64,000 nt of DNA from Candidatus Thorarchaeota archaeon (GCA_963726195.1 CAVSBO010000004.1:32001-96000), one strand, 5' to 3'. Positions 56,405-64,000 are shown, counted from the stretch's first letter. The notes: generated by a model from the letters alone, not told the origin. Translations and numbers: made by a program.

Positions 56405-58444
56405 CTAGACACACCACGCAATCGATGTGGGCGAAGCCTCACATGTCCTATCATACGCGCAAACACGCCTAGGATGATAATGCATGAGCCATAGCACAAT
56501 ATTGAGTGCCAGTGTCCCATCATAATACGAATGGTATTGATGCGTCATGCCGTAATTGTCGAATTCGAAATTGGAACCTGAGATAACGATCCTGCCACCA
56601 CCAGCACCCTGAAGGCATGCCAACACCGGGTCGATGCCGTAGCTTCCCAGAGTGGTTGCGCCGCCGGGGACTTTGATGGGTGCTCCAAGGAAGTCGAAGT
56701 CGTAAACTCCCACGGTCGTGGGATGGGCGGTGACTTGAGTAACAAGAACAGGACTGTCGCCAGAACCAACTCTGCCGTTTGTCAGAGAGAAGTTGGTCCA
56801 GCTGAGGAAATGATTGAGAGAGTGAACATCCAGACTGTCGTTTGATAGAGCAACAACGAGTATTCCACCACCGCTATTGAAGTATTGATGATAGGCTGTA
56901 ATCTCACTGTCTGAAAAGGGCACAGAGAAAATAGATGGGTTGAATGCGTCGCTCTCGTTTAAGTCCCAGACGCATGGGTCCAGCAAGAGGACTGCGTCAA
57001 ACGTGGAGAGAAGACTGTACGTGATTTCCGAGCTGTTGCGCAACTCCGTCACTGAGAACGAGTTCGTTGTGAGCTTCTTGTAGAACTCTCTGAACTGACC
57101 ATAGATTGTGTCAATGGACCAAGTCGTGTGGCTGATGTCGAAGGCTACCCTTGCAGTAGCGTCTGGAGCTGTGAACCGAATTGTGACGCGCGATGTGCCG
57201 CCGGTGTTAGATACGAATGTGATGTTGCCGCTGTAGGATGTGATACCGCTAGCTGGCACAACCACCTTCAGAGGAACAATGCCAACTTGGTTGATAGAAA
57301 CAGGCGAAGACACATTGAATATGCCTGGGGTGCTGCTGGTGATCTTAATGTCGAATGTCGCCTGCGATGACGTGAAGAGCTGCAGATTGAATTCATAGGT
57401 ATCTCCATGGAAGAGGCTCTCGAAATCAATGGGAAGTTCAGCAGGGCTTACGTATGAAATGTTAGGCAAAAGCCCTGTGCTCGAACTACCGGCTATCACT
57501 TGGATTGAATTCGTGAGATCTAATGCGCCAGCGCCAACAACATACTCTGGATAAGGCAGCGTGTCAGCACCTTTCAACAGGGCAGTCATGATTGAACCGG
57601 GTGTGAATGGCAAACTGTTCTTGATGCAGTAGGCGACCAGCTCCGCTGCCGCGGCAGACACACGTGGAGATGAAAAGGATGTTCCATAGTAGGTGGTTGT
57701 CGTCGTCTGAACGTAGCCAGCGGCGGCGATGTCTGGTTTCATATAGCTTGACGCAGTTGGGCCTGTACTTGAGAAGTAGGCCGGGGACCCATTATCATCG
57801 AGAGCCGCGACCGCTAGGCAGTCCATGAATACACCTGGCGACGAGACGCTCGTGCCGGCTCTTCCGCTGTCACCCTCGTTGCCCGCGGCTGCCACAACGA
57901 CGACTCCCTTTGAAAACGCATACTGTATCGCCTTCTCAGTTGGATCATCATAAGTTGGCGTCGAACCAAGGCTCAGATTGATGACACTGCAGTTCTGTTC
58001 GACTGCCCAGTAGATAGCGGCGATTAGTCCCGGTGTGGTGGCTTGTCCATTCGAATCAAGGATTCTTCCATTGACTATCACACAGTTTTGGCTTTCTTGA
58101 GCGATTGTCATAGCCACGAGTGTACCGTGTGGCGTGCCACCGGGCCTGGAATCAGTTGTGGTAAGGTCGCTGGAGGTGTAGCCGTAATCGACCGAAATGA
58201 AGCTCTGCTGCGAGGCGATTCTGCCCTGAAGAACGCCAGAGCTATCCATCCCCGAATCCAAGACTGCAACTCTGACTTGCCCAGTCCCTGACGAGAAAGG
58301 CCCGAGCTGCAAGAGAAGCATTACGCCGGAAGACATCACAATGAGAAGAATCACAAACACTGCCAGGAGCTTGATAGCGGTTGACGAGGACCGTTTGGGG
58401 CCGCTATCTCTGATTTCCCAATAGTTCATCATTGGATTCACCAT
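56405..58444 (-). CDS. Membrane-anchored S8 subtilase with Ig-like and GldG/DUF4350-type C-terminal domains (Site-1-protease-like architecture)
   Basis: N-terminal TM; catalytic motifs VLDSG, HGTLVA, GTSFSSP; oxyanion AAGN; C-domain RVAFDISH...GGRIVISGS. Confidence 0.85.
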   Translation of the reverse strand: MVNPMMNYWEIRDSGPKRSSSTAIKLLAVFVILLIVMSSGVMLLLQLGPFSSGTGQVRVAVLDSGMDSSGVLQGRIASQQSFISVDYGYTSSDLTTTDSRPGGTPHGTLVAMTIAQESQNCVIVNGRILDSNGQATTPGLIAAIYWAVEQNCSVINLSLGSTPTYDDPTEKAIQYAFSKGVVVVAAAGNEGDSGRAGTSVSSPGVFMDCLAVAALDDNGSPAYFSSTGPTASSYMKPDIAAAGYVQTTTTTYYGTSFSSPRVSAAAAELVAYCIKNSLPFTPGSIMTALLKGADTLPYPEYVVGAGALDLTNSIQVIAGSSSTGLLPNISYVSPAELPIDFESLFHGDTYEFNLQLFTSSQATFDIKITSSTPGIFNVSSPVSINQVGIVPLKVVVPASGITSYSGNITFVSNTGGTSRVTIRFTAPDATARVAFDISHTTWSIDTIYGQFREFYKKLTTNSFSVTELRNSSEITYSLLSTFDAVLLLDPCVWDLNESDAFNPSIFSVPFSDSEITAYHQYFNSGGGILVVALSNDSLDVHSLNHFLSWTNFSLTNGRVGSGDSPVLVTQVTAHPTTVGVYDFDFLGAPIKVPGGATTLGSYGIDPVLACLQGAGGGRIVISGSNFEFDNYGMTHQYHSYYDGTLALNIVLWLMHYHPRRVCAYDRTCEASPTSIAWCV

Positions 58445-58641
58445 CGAGTCACAGCTCGGGACCTGCCAAACCAATCAATCCATTGTACATGAAGCTGTTG
58501 TTCTGATACAATGCGGTCCACAGTGGAGCGATTGCATTTGAAAGGACCAACCGCAAGCGCGTTCGGAAGCCGTCGACCTGCTCAAAAGAAGCTTCAAAAG
58601 GTGGCCAGAGGAGGCCGAGTACGTTTTGGACTCCACAGAAC

Positions 58642-61620
58642 ATGTTACAAGTTGATTTATCTGGAAAAGGGCAGTCGAAGTGCTCAATCAACGGGGAACT
58701 CATCGTGCCAGAACAAGACGCCATCACAACTAGCCTAGGAGCTGAAGGTTTTCATTCGATACCTCTCGACGACCTGCTGCAAGTGCTCTCTGTTGATCCC
58801 AAGATTGGACTGTCGGACGAAGAGGTGAAGTCTCGCCTTCAGCAATATGGCCCCAACTCCATTCCGAAAGTCAAAGGGTCCTTCTGGAAAGTCTACTTGG
58901 CACCAATCCTGAACTGGCTGATTAACATCTATATCGTGAGCTCTGTTGCTCTTCTCGCAATCTCGTTGCTCTTTCCGTCTCCAGAGAACGGGCTCTTACA
59001 AGCCACAATCTGGATTGCTGTGGTTGCCGTGAATTGCATTGTGGCCATCTTTCAGCAGTATAGGGCCCAAAAGAAGCTTGAAGCGCTCGAGAAGCTGGCG
59101 GCAGGAGAAACAAGGGTCATACGTGACGGTTCAGAGATGAAAATAGACCCTGCCCGCATCGTGCCCGGTGATGTGATTAAACTCGAGCAGGGCGACAAGA
59201 TACCTGCTGATGCTAGGATAGTCTCATGCTCCAACCTCACGACCAATGAGGCTTCATTGACTGGTGAGAGTGTTCCCAGCACGAAGGACTACGAGGCAGT
59301 CTTGCCAGCGGCTGCTCCTATCACGGATATGACCAATACGATATTTCTGGGTACCTACGTTGCCACAGGCAGGGCACTTGCCGTCGTGACAAAGACCGGG
59401 GCCGCCACTGAGATTGGGAAGATCCAGAGAGAGCTGGAGGCGCTCAACACCGGGGATATACCTCTCCGGAAGAAAGTGAACCGACTCGCCAAGTATCTCG
59501 GCATAACGGCTCTCCTCTTGCTGGCCGTGTCCATCCTATGGCAGGTCTTCCTTCTACCGCTCATCACGAACACTCCCATCGTCATCACTCCTGAGGCTAT
59601 CGCTGCTAACCTGGAACTTGCCATACCCAGAGCCTTGACGATCATGCCCATGAATATCCCGTTGCTCACCACAATTGTGCTTCTTACTGGTGTTCTTGTC
59701 ATGGCGCAACATGGAGTAATCATCCGGGACCTCTCCGCTGTAGAGAGTCTGGGTCGGGTCAGTGTCATATGCTCAGACAAGACTGGCACATTGACGCGGA
59801 ACCAAATGACTGTCAGGTTTTGCTGGGACACGCAGAATCTCTATTCTGTAACTGGAGATGGATACGAGCCCTCAGGTCAGATATACCGACTCAAGGATTC
59901 TTCGGGAATCATGTCGTTCAATTACGAACATGAAAGCAAGCCGACTGACGTGAGAACTTCGAAGAGCCTGTACAAGCTAATGATATGCGGGGCGATAGAC
60001 AACGATTCTGAGATAGTGAAGAAGGAGATTCCCAGCCAAGGTACCGCTTGGACCGCTATCGGAGATCCGACTGATGCTGCCCTGCTTGCGCTCTTCAGAA
60101 AGACCAACCTCGATGAAGAAGATGTCAGAAAGAAGTACAAGGTGGTCAAGGAGTTTCCGTTCGAGTCTGAGCTGAAACGTGTATCAAAGATATGTCATGA
60201 CGGAAAGAAATTTGTCGCCTTTGTGAAGGGAGCAAGCGAAGTCATACTGCCAAGATGCACCACAATCGATGGAAGCGATCGCCCCTCAAAGCTCACGACC
60301 GATACTGCAGGCAAGATTCAGGGATATGTCGATAGCTTTGCAGCGATGGGATATCGTGTCATATCACTTGCTTACCATGAGATGGACTCCTTCCCCGAGT
60401 CTGAAGACGCAAGAGACCTGACCGAGAAGAACTTGGCATACCTCGGCTTTGCGTGCATTGTCGACCCGCCCCGTGATGGCGCAAAAGAAGCCGTAGAGAG
60501 TTGTCACAGTGCGGGGATTAACGTTGTGATGATTACTGGAGACGCCTCCGCCACTGCACAGACGATTGCTCGCGATTTGGGAATCTCGTCCAAGAACTCA
60601 CTAGTCGCAGAGGGTGCTTCGATTGAGGAACTCAGCGATAGCGATTTTGCAAAGGTGAATGTGTTCGCGCGCGTCAATCCTCAACACAAGCAAGTCATTG
60701 TAGAGCGGTACCAGAACCAAGGCAAAGTGGTCGCGATGACCGGAGACGGTGTCAACGATGCGCTTGCACTTGCGATGTGTGATGCAGGTATTGCCATGGG
60801 TATCACCGGTACGGATGTGGCCAAAGAAGCGGCAGACCTCGTGATAACCGACGACAGCTTCACGTCAATAGTTGAAGGTGTGCGTCAAGGAAGGGGCCTG
60901 TTCAACAAGATCCGAATGATGGTCTACTTCTACTTGGCTATCAACCTGTCTGAGAGCATTCTCTACTTTGGAGGGCTCTTCCTTCTGCCTGCGTCAATGG
61001 CAGTGCTGACATCGTGGCAGAGTCTGTACCTGATAGTCACCACTCATTCGTTTCCGGGATTGGCTCTCGTATTTGACAGAACTTCGCGTACGGCAATGGA
61101 CGAGAAACCAAGGGACAGTGAGGCAATTATCACTCATCCACTTGCCAAGTTTATGGCCCTCAACATAGTGCTGATGGCAATCGGCGCAGGGCTCGCCTAT
61201 GCATTGACCGTAACCGGGTGGTTCGGAATCGAGGGTCTCTTTCCCGAAAACGTAGGCGGTATCTACTCAGCTTCAATTGATTCCGCATTCAAGGCGAGGG
61301 TCATGATGTTGAGCGTGATGCTGCTGACCGAAAGCACGTTGGTACTCATAGTCAGACGCGTGAACATGTCTCTGAGGCGGAGTCTTAGGGAACCAGGGAC
61401 GATGATATTTGTTCCCTTCCTCGCAATCATCTATGCCGCACATTTGCTTCTGATGTACGTCCCACAGTCCCAAGGGTTATTGTCAACTGTAGGGCTTCAC
61501 TTTTACTTCCTGCCTTTGACGCTCTATGACTGGGTCATCTGCTTCTTGCTAGCTATGCCGGCAATAGTGGGTATGGAAGTGTACAAGTGGAGACTTAGAC
61601 GACAGGGCAAGACCATCTAG
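58642..61620 (+). CDS. P-type ATPase, type II (SERCA/PMR1-like scaffold) with non-canonical transport-site residues
   Basis: GLSDEEV, TGES, DKTGTLT, GDPTD, FESELKR, KGA, DPPR, TGD, GDGVNDA; 10 TM segments. Confidence 0.92.
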   Translation: MLQVDLSGKGQSKCSINGELIVPEQDAITTSLGAEGFHSIPLDDLLQVLSVDPKIGLSDEEVKSRLQQYGPNSIPKVKGSFWKVYLAPILNWLINIYIVSSVALLAISLLFPSPENGLLQATIWIAVVAVNCIVAIFQQYRAQKKLEALEKLAAGETRVIRDGSEMKIDPARIVPGDVIKLEQGDKIPADARIVSCSNLTTNEASLTGESVPSTKDYEAVLPAAAPITDMTNTIFLGTYVATGRALAVVTKTGAATEIGKIQRELEALNTGDIPLRKKVNRLAKYLGITALLLLAVSILWQVFLLPLITNTPIVITPEAIAANLELAIPRALTIMPMNIPLLTTIVLLTGVLVMAQHGVIIRDLSAVESLGRVSVICSDKTGTLTRNQMTVRFCWDTQNLYSVTGDGYEPSGQIYRLKDSSGIMSFNYEHESKPTDVRTSKSLYKLMICGAIDNDSEIVKKEIPSQGTAWTAIGDPTDAALLALFRKTNLDEEDVRKKYKVVKEFPFESELKRVSKICHDGKKFVAFVKGASEVILPRCTTIDGSDRPSKLTTDTAGKIQGYVDSFAAMGYRVISLAYHEMDSFPESEDARDLTEKNLAYLGFACIVDPPRDGAKEAVESCHSAGINVVMITGDASATAQTIARDLGISSKNSLVAEGASIEELSDSDFAKVNVFARVNPQHKQVIVERYQNQGKVVAMTGDGVNDALALAMCDAGIAMGITGTDVAKEAADLVITDDSFTSIVEGVRQGRGLFNKIRMMVYFYLAINLSESILYFGGLFLLPASMAVLTSWQSLYLIVTTHSFPGLALVFDRTSRTAMDEKPRDSEAIITHPLAKFMALNIVLMAIGAGLAYALTVTGWFGIEGLFPENVGGIYSASIDSAFKARVMMLSVMLLTESTLVLIVRRVNMSLRRSLREPGTMIFVPFLAIIYAAHLLLMYVPQSQGLLSTVGLHFYFLPLTLYDWVICFLLAMPAIVGMEVYKWRLRRQGKTI

Positions 61621-61649: not shown

Positions 61650-63614
61650 ATGCTGCAACTGCCGTTCTTCAGTCCGTTGATTTGGGGCCTAATGCTCGCG
61701 GCCGTCTTCCTAGTTACGGCTGTAGGTTCCATCATTGAGCTGACCATGAGAGCGAGAACCCGTCAAGTGCAGAGACTGGACGCGATGCTCCTCACTCGGA
61801 TGACCATTCCTGTTCTGGAGCTGGCAAATGGTCTTGACAAGAAGGCCCTCGACAAGTCGAGTACATTGGCTGTTGTTAAACGCGCAAAGAACGCAATGCT
61901 GAGCTTTGCCGGGAGCTCAGTCGTTTCAGTGCCACTGATGATGCAGAGACTTCGCTCGCAGCTCGCTGACAGCAGCGCAATCCATGTGGCAGATGAATCC
62001 AAGCGTTGGGAACTCTCAGATGATCAGATTGCTTCGTTAGTAGAAACAATCACAACGGCTGAGGGCATGGATGTTGTTCTGACGAAGGATGGAGATTTCA
62101 TTCTAGTCACTGAATTCAAGGGACGCATGAGGGATGCGCTCAATCTTGGCGGGCGCTTGGATATCTCGTCAGAGGCCCAACGCATGAGAGTGGATCCCGG
62201 AGAGCTCAGAAAACTTGTACAGACCTGGGGTTGGGGACTGATTGAGGGGTCTGACGGTTCACTGGTTTCAACACGCTGGCTGAAGTCGACTCTTGAACGC
62301 GGTGTCGATAAGCTGGGCTATCTGGACCCGAAGGCTGAGGCAGCACGATTGCACATTCCTGTGGGAGCCATCACGGAAACAATCAAACAGCTGAAGTGGA
62401 CACTCATCGAGACACAGGACGGGAGACAGGTGCCAAGCCACCTGTTGGAGCAGCACCTTGTCGATAGCATTCGAAAGGAAGGGTTCATTGATCTCGACGC
62501 GGAATCGAAGGAGCTCAAGGTAGGTGTTCCGGACCTACTAAGACTGCTGCGCACGGCTGGCATGCGCATAGTCTCCACGAAAGACCATTCGGTTGCGACT
62601 GTCGAGTACGTGCGAGACCGAGTCAGAGACGACATGCAGCTCTCCGGCTGGGTGTCACCCGATCAAGAGGCAGAGGTCCTCGGGGTCGACAAGAACGTCA
62701 TTGACGATATCTTGAAGGGCCAGCCCGGTTTGAGAAGAGGAAGAGATGGAAGGTATGTTTCGCTAGAATCCCTTCGACGATGGCTTCTTCAGGAAGCTGA
62801 AGAAGCAGGTGTGATTCGAGTGAACGACGCGGAGACGCAATGGGGTCTGTCTCCTCTCGAACTCCAGTTACTTGTAAGAGAGTCGGGCTTGACCACGGTC
62901 GTCACGCGCTCCGGTGACTACCTATCGACCGCGTTTGTCCGCCGAAAAGTACAATCTGATCTCAGCAAAGGTGTTCGTGTGGAGCCTTCCGTTCTCGCCA
63001 GTGGTCTAGGGATCGACTCAAGAACGGCTGAAGGAATCATGGCACGGGTGAAGGGAGAAGGGCTAGTCACAGAAGATGGCTCACTAATTCCTGCGTCTCT
63101 CTTGCGAAAGAATCTTCAGCAGGCATTTGCGTCCACGGGGATAGTTGACCTGGTGAGGGAGGGCAGAACTCAGAGACTCGACGTTTCGGATCTCAGAAGG
63201 ATAGTAGTAGGCTTGGGAATAGAGACGCTGGAGACCGCAACAAACAAGCTTGTTGACGTATCGTGGATTATCAATGGCATGAGACAGGCTCTCAAACTGA
63301 AAGGAGTCTTTTACCTTGCTAGACTAGCGAGCACTCTCGAACTTGATTACGTGACAGTGGCGGAGGTTGTTGAAAAGAAGCTTGAAGCCAATGAGATGAT
63401 TGTAGACCCAGCGGGTGTGGTTGTGAATTCTGAATGGGTTGCGGATCTTCGCCAGTATTCCTCAGTTACAGACATGATACCGGTTACACAGTTATCGACC
63501 GAGATGGGCCTTAGCCCCGAGTCGGTGCTTCATTTGCTCAAGAGGTACGTGGGCGGTCTCTACAATTCGCGGACCGACTCATTCACCCCTCGACTGCAAC
63601 AAACAGGTACGTAA
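61650..63614 (+). CDS. Membrane-anchored tandem winged-helix repeat protein, UFL1/DDRGK1-like
   Basis: N-terminal TM helix, then about 11 repeats of ~53 aa (helix, G.h.h...A..h.h....h..hh, T.DG.h wing). Confidence 0.7.
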   Translation: MLQLPFFSPLIWGLMLAAVFLVTAVGSIIELTMRARTRQVQRLDAMLLTRMTIPVLELANGLDKKALDKSSTLAVVKRAKNAMLSFAGSSVVSVPLMMQRLRSQLADSSAIHVADESKRWELSDDQIASLVETITTAEGMDVVLTKDGDFILVTEFKGRMRDALNLGGRLDISSEAQRMRVDPGELRKLVQTWGWGLIEGSDGSLVSTRWLKSTLERGVDKLGYLDPKAEAARLHIPVGAITETIKQLKWTLIETQDGRQVPSHLLEQHLVDSIRKEGFIDLDAESKELKVGVPDLLRLLRTAGMRIVSTKDHSVATVEYVRDRVRDDMQLSGWVSPDQEAEVLGVDKNVIDDILKGQPGLRRGRDGRYVSLESLRRWLLQEAEEAGVIRVNDAETQWGLSPLELQLLVRESGLTTVVTRSGDYLSTAFVRRKVQSDLSKGVRVEPSVLASGLGIDSRTAEGIMARVKGEGLVTEDGSLIPASLLRKNLQQAFASTGIVDLVREGRTQRLDVSDLRRIVVGLGIETLETATNKLVDVSWIINGMRQALKLKGVFYLARLASTLELDYVTVAEVVEKKLEANEMIVDPAGVVVNSEWVADLRQYSSVTDMIPVTQLSTEMGLSPESVLHLLKRYVGGLYNSRTDSFTPRLQQTGT

Positions 63615-63716
63615 CCAGAAGTATGCTTGGCGTATATACAATATGTTCCTACCGCTCTCGATATGGGAACTCTATAAATAAGCGGTTTGTCTTGTATTCT
63701 GATGGGTGCACTTACT

Positions 63717-64000
63717 GTGGGCCGCATGACCACTCACAAGATTAGGCAGATGAAGGGCAAGAAGAAGATCGTAATGCTGACCGCTTACGATGCTCCATGT
63801 GCTCGAATCCTGAGCGACAACGGAGTTGACATCATTCTTGTTGGAGACTCTGTCGGCAATTCGTTGCTCGGCTACGAGAGCACGATACCCGTGACCTTGG
63901 ATGACATAATCCACCACTCCGCAGCAGTGGCAAGGGCAAAGCCAAGCTCGCTAATTGTCGGCGACATGCCTTTCATGTCGTACAAAATCAGCGAAGAACA
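63717..64000 (+). CDS. panB: 3-methyl-2-oxobutanoate hydroxymethyltransferase (runs off window; absent from the ORF track)
   Basis: KIVMLTAYDA, DIILVGDS.G..LLGY.ST.PVTLDD..HH..AV, VGDMPFMSY; TATAAATA at about 63673. Confidence 0.95.
   Translation, partial: MGRMTTHKIRQMKGKKKIVMLTAYDAPCARILSDNGVDIILVGDSVGNSLLGYESTIPVTLDDIIHHSAAVARAKPSSLIVGDMPFMSYKISEE

Follow-up and report, generated by a model that had tools for sequence, protein, structure and literature searches.

The P2-type Ca2+ pumps are the closest described relatives of the protein considered here. SERCA, the best known of these, has two Ca2+ sites. Site I is built from N768, E771, T799, D800 and E908; site II is built from E309, carbonyls of transmembrane helix M4, N796 and, again, D800. 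LMCA1 of Listeria and the pumps of the PMR1/SPCA type use site II, with its M4 Glu and M6 Asn/Asp. In P2 and P3 pumps alike, ion binding is taken to depend almost universally on the Glu of M4 and the Asp of M6. We describe a gene in which both are replaced. It lies on the + strand of a 64,000-nucleotide stretch of DNA from a Candidatus Thorarchaeota archaeon (GCA_963726195.1 CAVSBO010000004.1:32001-96000), referred to below as ‘the window’, and all positions are counted from the first letter of that stretch. The gene encodes a complete, ten-helix, P2-type ATPase with an intact catalytic core. Probably, in this protein and its relatives, site II is plugged and a single, rebuilt site carries a small cation other than Ca2+. 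The family is a real, conserved and uncharacterised variant of these pumps; signs of a categorically new mechanism there are, as yet, none.

The clade to which the gene belongs is large, ancient and still expanding. Its members, which come from some half of the Asgard families and from a branch of the Thermoplasmatota, have other residues in place of the M4 Glu and the M6 Asp, and strong selection maintains the replacement. Knowing the substrate would add a Glu/Glu/His/Asn/Asn design to the repertoire of P-type ion sites, and would show how a two-site pump can be converted into a one-site pump of different specificity. In a survey of the Asgard transportome, the P2-type pumps of the phylum were assigned as putative Ca2+-ATPases and taken as evidence for Ca2+ signalling (PMC7997004). 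Insofar as that assignment covers the present clade, conclusions about Ca2+ signalling would need revision if the clade pumps something else.

The pump and its ion-binding residues

The open reading frame (ORF) is uninterrupted from an ATG at 58642 to 61620, and specifies 992 residues. Residues are numbered by this ORF throughout, and the numbering coincides with that of SERCA at N768 and E771. The true start is probably the GTG at 58705, which gives a coding sequence of 58705..61620 and a protein of 971 residues. Close homologues begin at query residue 22, with M-P-(E/Q)-x-D-A, in support of this start, and residues 1–34 of the long ORF are disordered in the AlphaFold2 model of the pump. The gene, or a variant ~95% identical to it, occurs on metagenome contigs from peat and freshwater sediment (two studies); the indels between these copies and the gene are in-frame only.

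The catalytic motifs, and the membrane motifs given below, all lie where the original prediction placed them. The dephosphorylation motif of the actuator (A) domain, TGES, occupies residues 207–210 (59260–59271), and (L/M)TGES is present in 121 of 121 close homologues. DKTGT, which contains the phosphorylated residue, Asp379, occupies residues 379–383 (59776–59790); D379, K380, G382 and T383 are invariant across the homologues. GDGVND, the hinge and Mg2+ motif of the phosphorylation (P) domain, occupies residues 701–706 (60742–60759) and is followed by Leu708, a family-specific residue where canonical pumps have Pro. Five P2-type Pfam domains (Cation_ATPase_N, E1-E2_ATPase, Cation_ATPase, Hydrolase and Cation_ATPase_C) score above their cut-offs, and the protein reaches 260.5 bits with the generic P-type model, TIGR01494 (cut-off 62.3), which places it in the P-type superfamily. 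The AlphaFold2 model (predicted local distance difference test, 82.6; predicted template-modelling score, 0.76) has ten membrane helices. Helix M4 breaks at 333–338 and M6 at 802–803, as these helices do in P2 pumps. The best structural matches found with Foldseek are E2 states of SERCA (template-modelling score 0.76–0.77; 27–28% identity), followed by SPCA1, LMCA1, and the Na,K- and H,K-ATPases. All of the top 50 matches are P2 ion pumps; P4 and P5 chains are absent from these 50.

The residues of the transport site come from four helices. In M4, the unwound segment IMPMNIP (residues 334–340, 59641–59661) supplies P336, M337 at the position of E309, and N338 at that of G310. In M5, INLSE (767–771, 60940–60954) supplies N768 and E771. 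M6, QSLYLIVTTHSFPGLAL (793–809, 61018–61068), supplies I798, H802 and S803 at the positions of N796, D800 and G801, and M8, LLTES (894–898, 61321–61335), supplies E897 at that of E908. These equivalences come from alignments and the family profile. HMMER aligns M4 ‘mpmnip’ with ‘ipeals’ of Listeria LMCA1, and M6 ‘lylivtthsfp’ with ‘lfinlvndslp’, pairing Met with the M4 Glu and, in M6, Ile with Asn and His with Asp; alignment to H,K- and Na,K-ATPase chains gives the same register. A profile of the C-terminal third of the protein, built from 14 family members, aligns with SERCA2 chains (E 2e-15): the N..E of M5 and the Glu of M8 meet their SERCA2 counterparts, the M6 Asn is faced by an aromatic or hydrophobic residue, and the M6 Asp by His. 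The piece from M8 to the C-terminus has no match in the PDB when used alone as the query; the family profile did match. The replacement of E309, N796 and D800 by Met, Ile and His, as originally predicted, is borne out by the alignments to LMCA1 and SERCA2. The set of residues said to be retained fares less evenly: the equivalents of N768, E771 and E908 are conserved throughout the family, and that of T799, a Thr in the query, is not.

Conservation is strict among close relatives. The best 120 database clusters (62–81% identity; named Thorarchaeota or Promethearchaeota) have MP-I-NIP, INL-x-ES, TTHSFPGLAL and the M8 Glu in 120 of 120 cases. The Met of PMNIP is a local variant found in the query only, every one of these clusters having PINIP. 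In an exhaustive search of representatives at 50% identity, some 40 further clusters bear the same signature, at identities down to 33–37%, and ordinary PEGLP/N..TD pumps start below them in the ranking. Canonical PEGL/N/D residues in orthologues, which would have made this copy a degenerate one, are not what these clusters show: the changes are coordinated, and the orthologues conserve them.

Percentages for the wider family refer to a profile of 37 clusters at 50% identity, compared with canonical pumps. At 337, where canonical pumps have Glu (99%), the family has Ile (70%), Val (8%), Phe (8%), Met (5%) or Trp (5%). Asn (92%) takes the place of Gly (95%) at 338, His (97%) that of Asp (91%) at 802, and Tyr, Phe, Ile, Val or Ala that of Asn (97%) at 798. 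N768 is shared (89% in the family, 94% in canonical pumps), as is E771 (100 and 92%). At 897 the family has Glu (95%) where canonical prokaryotic pumps have Gln (60%) or Glu (33%). The T799 position, 801, is Thr in 89% of canonical pumps and Thr (24%), Ala (22%), Val (22%) or Ser (16%) in the family. The P[MI]NI and TTH motifs that were singled out for checking therefore hold in part: PINIP and the His are conserved, and the Thr before the His is not conserved family-wide.

The conserved polar set is Asn338, Asn768, Glu771, His802 and Glu897; Thr801, which varies among members, falls outside it. Positions peculiar to the family are N338, H802, Q139, L708 and, in M1, Y85 and P88. Q139 stands where canonical pumps carry the Glu of the M2 entry funnel (E109 of SERCA), 82% of the family have Asn at the M1 Asp position, and aromatic residues have been gained at 764, 798 and 85. 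Since they are conserved clade-wide, the odd residues go far beyond chance, and since close and distant homologues alike keep them, they are not the product of decay. Nor are they errors, as the original prediction had argued from their being coordinated: the orthologues keep the same residues. The same conserved, non-canonical site upholds its claim that this is not a standard two-site Ca2+ pump.

The site also varies in a coordinated way in some subclades (L126, L131 and L136 of family f8, and groups P0129 and P0143). In P0129, Thr, Ser or Met replaces the M4 Asn, and M6 has ‘H-D’ at the same time; in P0143, Asn is replaced by Ser, His by Gln, and the M8 Glu by Gln. This variation looks like a natural mutant series for the pocket.

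Placement and distribution of the clade

NCBIfam models were scored on the query, four other family members, and canonical Ca2+-pump controls. The scores serve as a proxy for placement relative to eukaryotic P2D, P3A, P4 and P5 pumps, the trees described below having been built without those references. The generic P-type model alone reaches its cut-off; no curated subfamily model does so for the query or the other four members. The order of scores in the family is that of ordinary Ca2+ pumps: P2A > P2D/P2B > P2C > P3A > P3B > P5 > P1B > P4. The P2A models give the family 411–541 bits and the canonical controls 650–823. With the SERCA-type model, TIGR01116, the query scores 411 bits and the other members 421–493 (cut-off 703.4), and in place of the PEGLP and N..(T)D motifs of that type the family has P(M/I)NIP in M4 and a hydrophobic residue plus His in M6. 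The PMR1/SPCA model, TIGR01522, is the top NCBIfam match of the query (460 bits) and of two of the four other members (which range from 421 to 541); its cut-off is 798.3, the controls score 688–823, and the site II residues of this type, the M4 Glu and the M6 Asn/Asp, are missing from the family. Scores for the remaining P2 subclasses also fall short: 410 bits for the query and 340–416 for the others with TIGR01517 (P2B; cut-off 507), 362 and 351–396 with TIGR01106 (P2C; 946), and 445 and 369–403 with TIGR01523 (P2D; 645).

Beyond the P2 pumps, TIGR01647 (P3A; cut-off 615.5) gives the family 310–375 bits and ordinary Ca2+ pumps 423–457, and the M6 Asp that defines P3A pumps is His. TIGR01652 (P4; 431) gives 86–126 bits, and 78–106 for ordinary Ca2+ pumps; the family has TGES instead of DGET, and E771 and E897 are conserved in its ion pocket. 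TIGR01657 (P5; 618) gives 198–240 bits and 248–255 for canonical pumps, and in place of the P5 M4 motif, PP(E/D/A)LP, there is a single Pro before a variable residue. P1B models give 195–233 bits (cut-off 346). By these scores the family has no special affinity to the eukaryotic giant-substrate pumps (P4 and P5), and no evidence was found that ties the clade to their origin.

Two trees were made, one with FastTree (93 rows) and one with IQ-TREE (43 rows). In both, the signature-bearing sequences, the query among them, form one clade, with support of 100 (starred) and a stem of 0.26–0.36. The trees differ over where this clade branches among the canonical P2 pumps. IQ-TREE places it within the P2 radiation, with MgtA-like paralogues outside (88–89, unstarred); in the FastTree tree the MgtA-like copies join the canonical pumps, with the family across the split from them (93, unstarred). 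P3-like paralogues do not join the family in either. Because no subfamily model claims the family, the clade is supported at 100 (starred), and the folds and score order are those of P2 pumps, we file it, from sequence and predicted fold, as a separate clade, still without a name, within the P2 radiation; it occurs in Asgard archaea and Thermoplasmatota. Its signature is a hydrophobic residue at the E309 position, Asn or Ser at G310, N768, E771, His at D800, and Glu at E908; the query has all six.

The suggestion that the gene might define an undescribed subfamily thus agrees with what we found: no curated model claims the clade, and a literature search, whose silence is no proof, returned no description of it. 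In a review of open questions about P-type ATPases, Asgard archaea and a clade of this kind both go unmentioned (PMC10654040). In databases, members are named ‘cation-translocating P-type ATPase’ or ‘Ca2+-transporting ATPase’. A homologue looked up in the Atlas gave generic P-type clusters only, and a locus search with the family alignment, whose motifs are generic, returned ordinary bacterial pumps only.

Matches at E<=1e-100 occur in 368 of 400 genomes of the phylum to which the window belongs, and strong, family-type matches (E<1e-190) in ~17 of 33 coded Asgard families. The largest families are included: f1 (Thorarchaeota, 60–69% identity), f14 (~50%), and f8, f11 and f22 (43–46%). Ten other Asgard families have canonical pumps only, as judged from representative genomes, one of them 100% complete. 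All named Asgard members are Thor-, Odin- or Helarchaeota, or ‘Promethearchaeota’. The deepest branch is a Thermoplasmatota group, P0158, with 13 species-level genomes and many proteins from metagenome-assembled genomes so named. Its members have PWSFP in M4, N..E in M5, STH(I/L)FP in M6 and W(A/G)EC in M8; so they keep the His/Glu/Glu/Asn core, and Trp would plug site II. Among 141 P-type ORFs from named loci, roughly half of which could not be parsed at this position, His at the D800 position is found in Thermoplasmatota and Asgard archaea only.

The clade is old and repeatedly duplicated. Tandem, same-strand pairs of paralogues occur at four f22 loci (L127, L130, L137 and L138) and in an f32 genome (L123, G397:C86). 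In the f22 pairs one copy has ‘DIMPINIP’ in M4 and the other ‘NIMPINLP’, and the two fall in separate subclades of the tree. Family f21 alone has a deep paralogue, and its genomes also carry a main-clade copy.

Canonical pumps are widespread in the same genomes. With the SERCA-type model as query and a threshold of E<=1e-150, 331 of 400 Asgard genomes, 69 of the 85 Thorarchaeota among them, proved to have a canonical-type pump; two Thorarchaeota copies that we inspected have IPEGLP, N.GE and WVNLVTDG. We considered whether the family replaces the canonical Ca2+ pump, with complementary phyletic distributions, and rejected this because the two co-occur. Their co-occurrence implies that the His clade has a role of its own, and speaks for a function that is not redundant.

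Nine P-type loci were found in the window's own genome: a copper-type gene with CPC, two MgtA-like genes, one with PEEFP, a Na,K-like gene with PEGLQ/GDGAND, a split gene with PESLP, two fragments, and the His-site gene. A P3A-type pump was not seen among the nine. The PESLP gene, a canonical P2A pump at G000:C3:499483-503088, is split between reading frames, with TGES and DKTGT in frame 0 and KGA.E, DPPR and GDGxND in frame 2; the cause is either a frameshift that has made it a pseudogene or an error of assembly. The genome, 89% complete, yielded no full canonical pump. The Na,K-like gene, near G000:C13:8418-8996, encodes a 968-residue ATPase that resembles the Na,K/H,K type (P2C), with PEGLQ in M4, GDGAND, and ‘AIDLFIEILPS’ in M6. 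It groups with a P2C-like cluster in both trees. Archaeal P2C pumps have been listed as an open question (PMC10654040).

Neighbouring genes and the promoter region

Upstream of the pump, and divergent from it, is a gene for a membrane-anchored S8 subtilase (56405..58474, - strand; Pfam Peptidase_S8, E 5e-36). This head-to-head pairing recurs in 28 of 28 informative Thorarchaeota loci, from ~16 genera, and is kept despite erosion of synteny elsewhere; the intergenic region (58475–58704 in the window) is 110–300 bp long. Among 17 non-Thorarchaeota Asgard loci (of 20 screened), no S8 subtilase was found near the pump. Such pairing suggests co-regulation or a functional link with the pump, the link being unproven. 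Subtilases are typically stabilised by Ca2+.

A TATA-like box, TTGATTTATCTG, lies at 58652..58663 on the + strand, 42–53 nucleotides 5′ of the GTG and within the over-long ATG ORF. ATTTATC(T) occurs at about -50 from the pump start in 19–22 of 29 Thorarchaeota intergenic regions; the box occurs once in the window, where 0.03 chance matches are expected. A second conserved word, ATGAACCTATCG, is found at about -175 from the pump start, towards the subtilase end, in 18–21 of 29 Thorarchaeota loci. It does not occur in the present window.

Downstream, a gene on the + strand (61650–63614) begins 30 nucleotides past the pump stop. It encodes a 654-residue protein whose single membrane helix, at the N-terminus, precedes a long, helical, repeat-like body, and has a weak match to E3_UFM1_ligase (PF09743; 26 bits, residues 117–216). 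Of 29 Thorarchaeota loci, 6 keep the gene at this place, and it was not found near the pump in the other lineages sampled. The start of a PanB-like (ketopantoate hydroxymethyltransferase) gene follows at 63687–63998, also on the + strand, recognised from its translated sequence only and running off the end of the window.

No gene is common across families next to the pump (20 Asgard loci from ~12 families). The annotated Asgard neighbours are unrelated genes (a Lon-like protease, oxidoreductases, KaiC-like, YhhN, MFS and TrmO), with no metal regulator or candidate subunit among them; a PMT-type glycosyltransferase lies 3′ of the pump in one Asgard locus. In Thermoplasmatota the ATPase is part of a row of genes (L140–L152; e.g. 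L149:4777-13102) that encode a DUF4405-like membrane protein, a small CcsA-like protein, a glycosyltransferase of family 4 (GT4), the His-site ATPase, a membrane protein (weak PF06695), and an NAD-dependent epimerase/dehydratase. The GT4 gene is directly 5′ of the ATPase in 10 of the 12 Thermoplasmatota loci with a called ATPase ORF, on the same strand, with short gaps or overlaps. We regard these neighbours, the subtilase included, as leads rather than evidence, compatible with a pump that serves the cell surface and also with transport of glycolipids. In eukaryotes, PMR1/SPCA pumps supply Ca2+ and Mn2+ for secretory proteases and glycosyltransferases.

Transport mechanism and relation to known pumps

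The conserved residues suggest the following scheme. The pump would follow an ordinary Post-Albers cycle, in which Asp379 of DKTGT is phosphorylated and TGES dephosphorylates it. Site II would be closed by hydrophobic side chains, Met or Ile at 337 (E309) and Ile, Tyr or Phe at 798 (N796). A single pocket would remain, at the position of SERCA site I, formed by Asn338 of M4, Asn768 and Glu771 of M5, His802 of M6 and Glu897 of M8, and lined beside His802 by the small polar residue at 803. Site I would thus be rebuilt, with His for the bridging Asp, and with Asn338 and the small polar residue for the glycines of the unwound M4 and M6. The acidic residues of the cytoplasmic Ca2+ entry funnel would be neutralised, E109 by Gln and the M1 Asp position mostly by Asn. 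One small cation per cycle would be carried out of the cytoplasm, with His802 acting either as a ligand or as a built-in counter-charge that aids ion release and triggers dephosphorylation. Built-in counter-charges recur in P-type pumps of reduced stoichiometry, among them the M6 His of P1B-4 pumps (PMC10654040). We infer, rather than observe, that the five residues form one site; the same holds for stoichiometry, transport direction and ion identity.

Such a pocket has two carboxylates rather than four. It would therefore suit one divalent ion, with neutral His as a ligand, or one monovalent ion or proton, with His protonated. A borderline divalent metal of the Mn2+/Fe2+/Zn2+ class is our tentative first choice, because of the His ligand and a set of side chains of octahedral size. 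H+, carried by a Glu-His pair, is the next possibility, and a doubtful one; it is favoured by the P3-like hydrophobic residue in M4, the acid/base pair and the lost funnel carboxylates. A larger substrate of any kind we think rather unlikely, and a lipid-type one very much so. Na+, K+ or NH4+ on the one hand, and Ca2+ or Mg2+ on the other, seem to us unlikely, and equally so. Several observations weigh against a small cation other than Ca2+, or against a metal in particular. Every specific ion has its counterpoint, His being an unusual ligand for Na+, K+, Ca2+ and Mg2+. Loss of the acidic funnel is less easily squared with a divalent metal than with H+ or a monovalent ion. We found no cytosolic metal-binding domain, metal-responsive regulator or lineage-wide partner gene. 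And coexistence with a canonical pump leaves Ca2+ possible, eukaryotic Ca2+ pumps also coexisting as paralogues.

Among other explanations, a proton pump deserves the most attention, although we consider it a minority prospect. Glu771 (or Glu897) would load a cytoplasmic H+, and in the E2P state His802 would draw near, lower the pKa, and cause the proton to be expelled outside—conceivably a charge-swapped analogue of the P3A pumps, in which Asp (M6) is paired with Arg (M5). This would account for a hydrophobic E309 position, a feature of P3 pumps too (PMC4937031), for the acid/base pair in M5/M6, and for the loss of the funnel acids. The Asp-Arg release mechanism of P3A pumps is on record (PMC10654040), and the window's own genome offers no P3A-type pump among its nine P-type genes. 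The P3A model, however, scores the family below ordinary Ca2+ pumps and far below its cut-off, the M6 Asp that defines P3A is missing, and five conserved polar side chains exceed the needs of a one-proton site. A one-site pump for Ca2+ (or Ca2+/Mn2+), working through site I, unlike LMCA1, SPCA and PMCA, which use site II, is unlikely. In favour of it, the best sequence and profile matches of the protein are Ca2+ pumps (LMCA1, E 3e-114, and the PMR1-type model as top NCBIfam match), and N768, E771 and E908 of site I are kept. Such a pump might, in Thorarchaeota, serve the cell surface and there, for instance, the adjacent subtilase, of Ca2+-dependent type, with which it is paired in all 28 loci. 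Yet 97% of clusters have His, which does not serve as a Ca2+ ligand, in place of the Asp common to both Ca2+ sites; the T799 position varies; the Ca2+-pump models score 411–541 bits (cut-offs 703 and 798; canonical pumps 650–823); most genomes already have a canonical Ca2+-type pump; and the S8 pairing is limited to one family of the phylum.

The original prediction also raised a lipid or peptide substrate, noting that a hydrophobic residue at the E309 position is a hallmark of P4 flippases. That residue is not specific to P4, since Ile or Val stands there in P3 H+ pumps (PMC4937031). A substrate that is bulky or non-ionic (a lipid, lipid-linked sugar, peptide or polyamine) would pass along M1-M2-M4-M6 under a hydrophobic M4 gate, as in P4 and P5 pumps. 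In keeping with this, the M4 sequence P-I-N-I (P-I-S/T-I in some members) resembles the PISL of P4 pumps (PMC4937031), aromatic residues have been gained at 764, 798 and 85, the Thermoplasmatota row is operon-like and includes a GT4 glycosyltransferase and a sugar-nucleotide epimerase, and a PMT-type glycosyltransferase adjoins one Asgard copy. Against it, the A domain has TGES, not DGET; we read the P4 and P5 scores as no higher than those of ordinary Ca2+ pumps; the 50 best folds are all of P2 pumps; two buried glutamates and a His occupy the classical ion pocket; and the glycosylation neighbours are found in two lineages only, with no phylum-wide neighbour. On this evidence the hint of a flippase does not hold up, and we think it most improbable that the clade moves a lipid-linked sugar, another amphipathic building block of the surface or an organic cation rather than a metal ion or proton. 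To our knowledge, giant-substrate P-type pumps (P4 and P5) have so far come from eukaryotes only; were this reading true, a prokaryotic one would exist in the archaeal lineage nearest to eukaryotes. Finally, an ordinary Ca2+ pump that has degenerated or lost activity, or been misread in sequencing, might explain the gene; the departure from canonical motifs is the sole point in favour. An open frame with invariant catalytic residues, the same non-canonical residues in hundreds of genomes from two phyla, a conserved promoter-like box 5′ of the gene, and independent metagenome contigs that carry it speak against this, and the conservation data refute it.

Set beside the known classes, the reading we favour, a P2-type pump with site II plugged and one rebuilt site, shares single features with several. 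P1B-4 pumps (sCoaT type) use an M6 His as an internal counter-ion, and P3A H+ pumps an acid/base pair (PMC10654040). The likeness to P1B-4 is one of analogy only, a histidine of M6 at the transport site; those pumps are of a different class, with eight helices and an SPC motif in M4. P4 flippases likewise have a hydrophobic residue after the M4 proline, and some family members have PISIP or PITIP there; they differ in having DGET, whereas the family has TGES and retains charged residues in the ion pocket. With the P3A pumps AHA2 and Pma1 the family has in common a buried acid with a basic partner that could drive release (PMC10654040), and a hydrophobic E309 position, Ile or Val in P3 pumps (PMC4937031). 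The helices of acid and base are swapped in the family, Glu being in M5 and His in M6, and the M6 Asp of P3A is missing.

SERCA1 and SERCA2 (5zmv, 4ycm, 5ncq and 5mpm) are alike in the ten-helix fold, in TGES/DKTGT/GDGVND, in the unwound M4 and M6, and in N768, E771 and E908. They are unlike in that, in the family, E309 is Met or Ile, G310 is Asn, N796 is hydrophobic or aromatic, D800 is His, E109 is Gln, and T799 is not conserved. In sequence, the best matches are LMCA1 (6zhf, 6zhh and 9euq) and pumps of the PMR1/SPCA type (8iwp and 7yag), with E values from 3e-114 to 1e-106. Like the family, these are all probably one-site pumps, but it is exactly their site II residues that the family has lost. 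Conserved instead are the site I-type Glu of M5 and Glu of M8, the latter present in 95% of the family at a position where 60% of canonical prokaryotic pumps have Gln.

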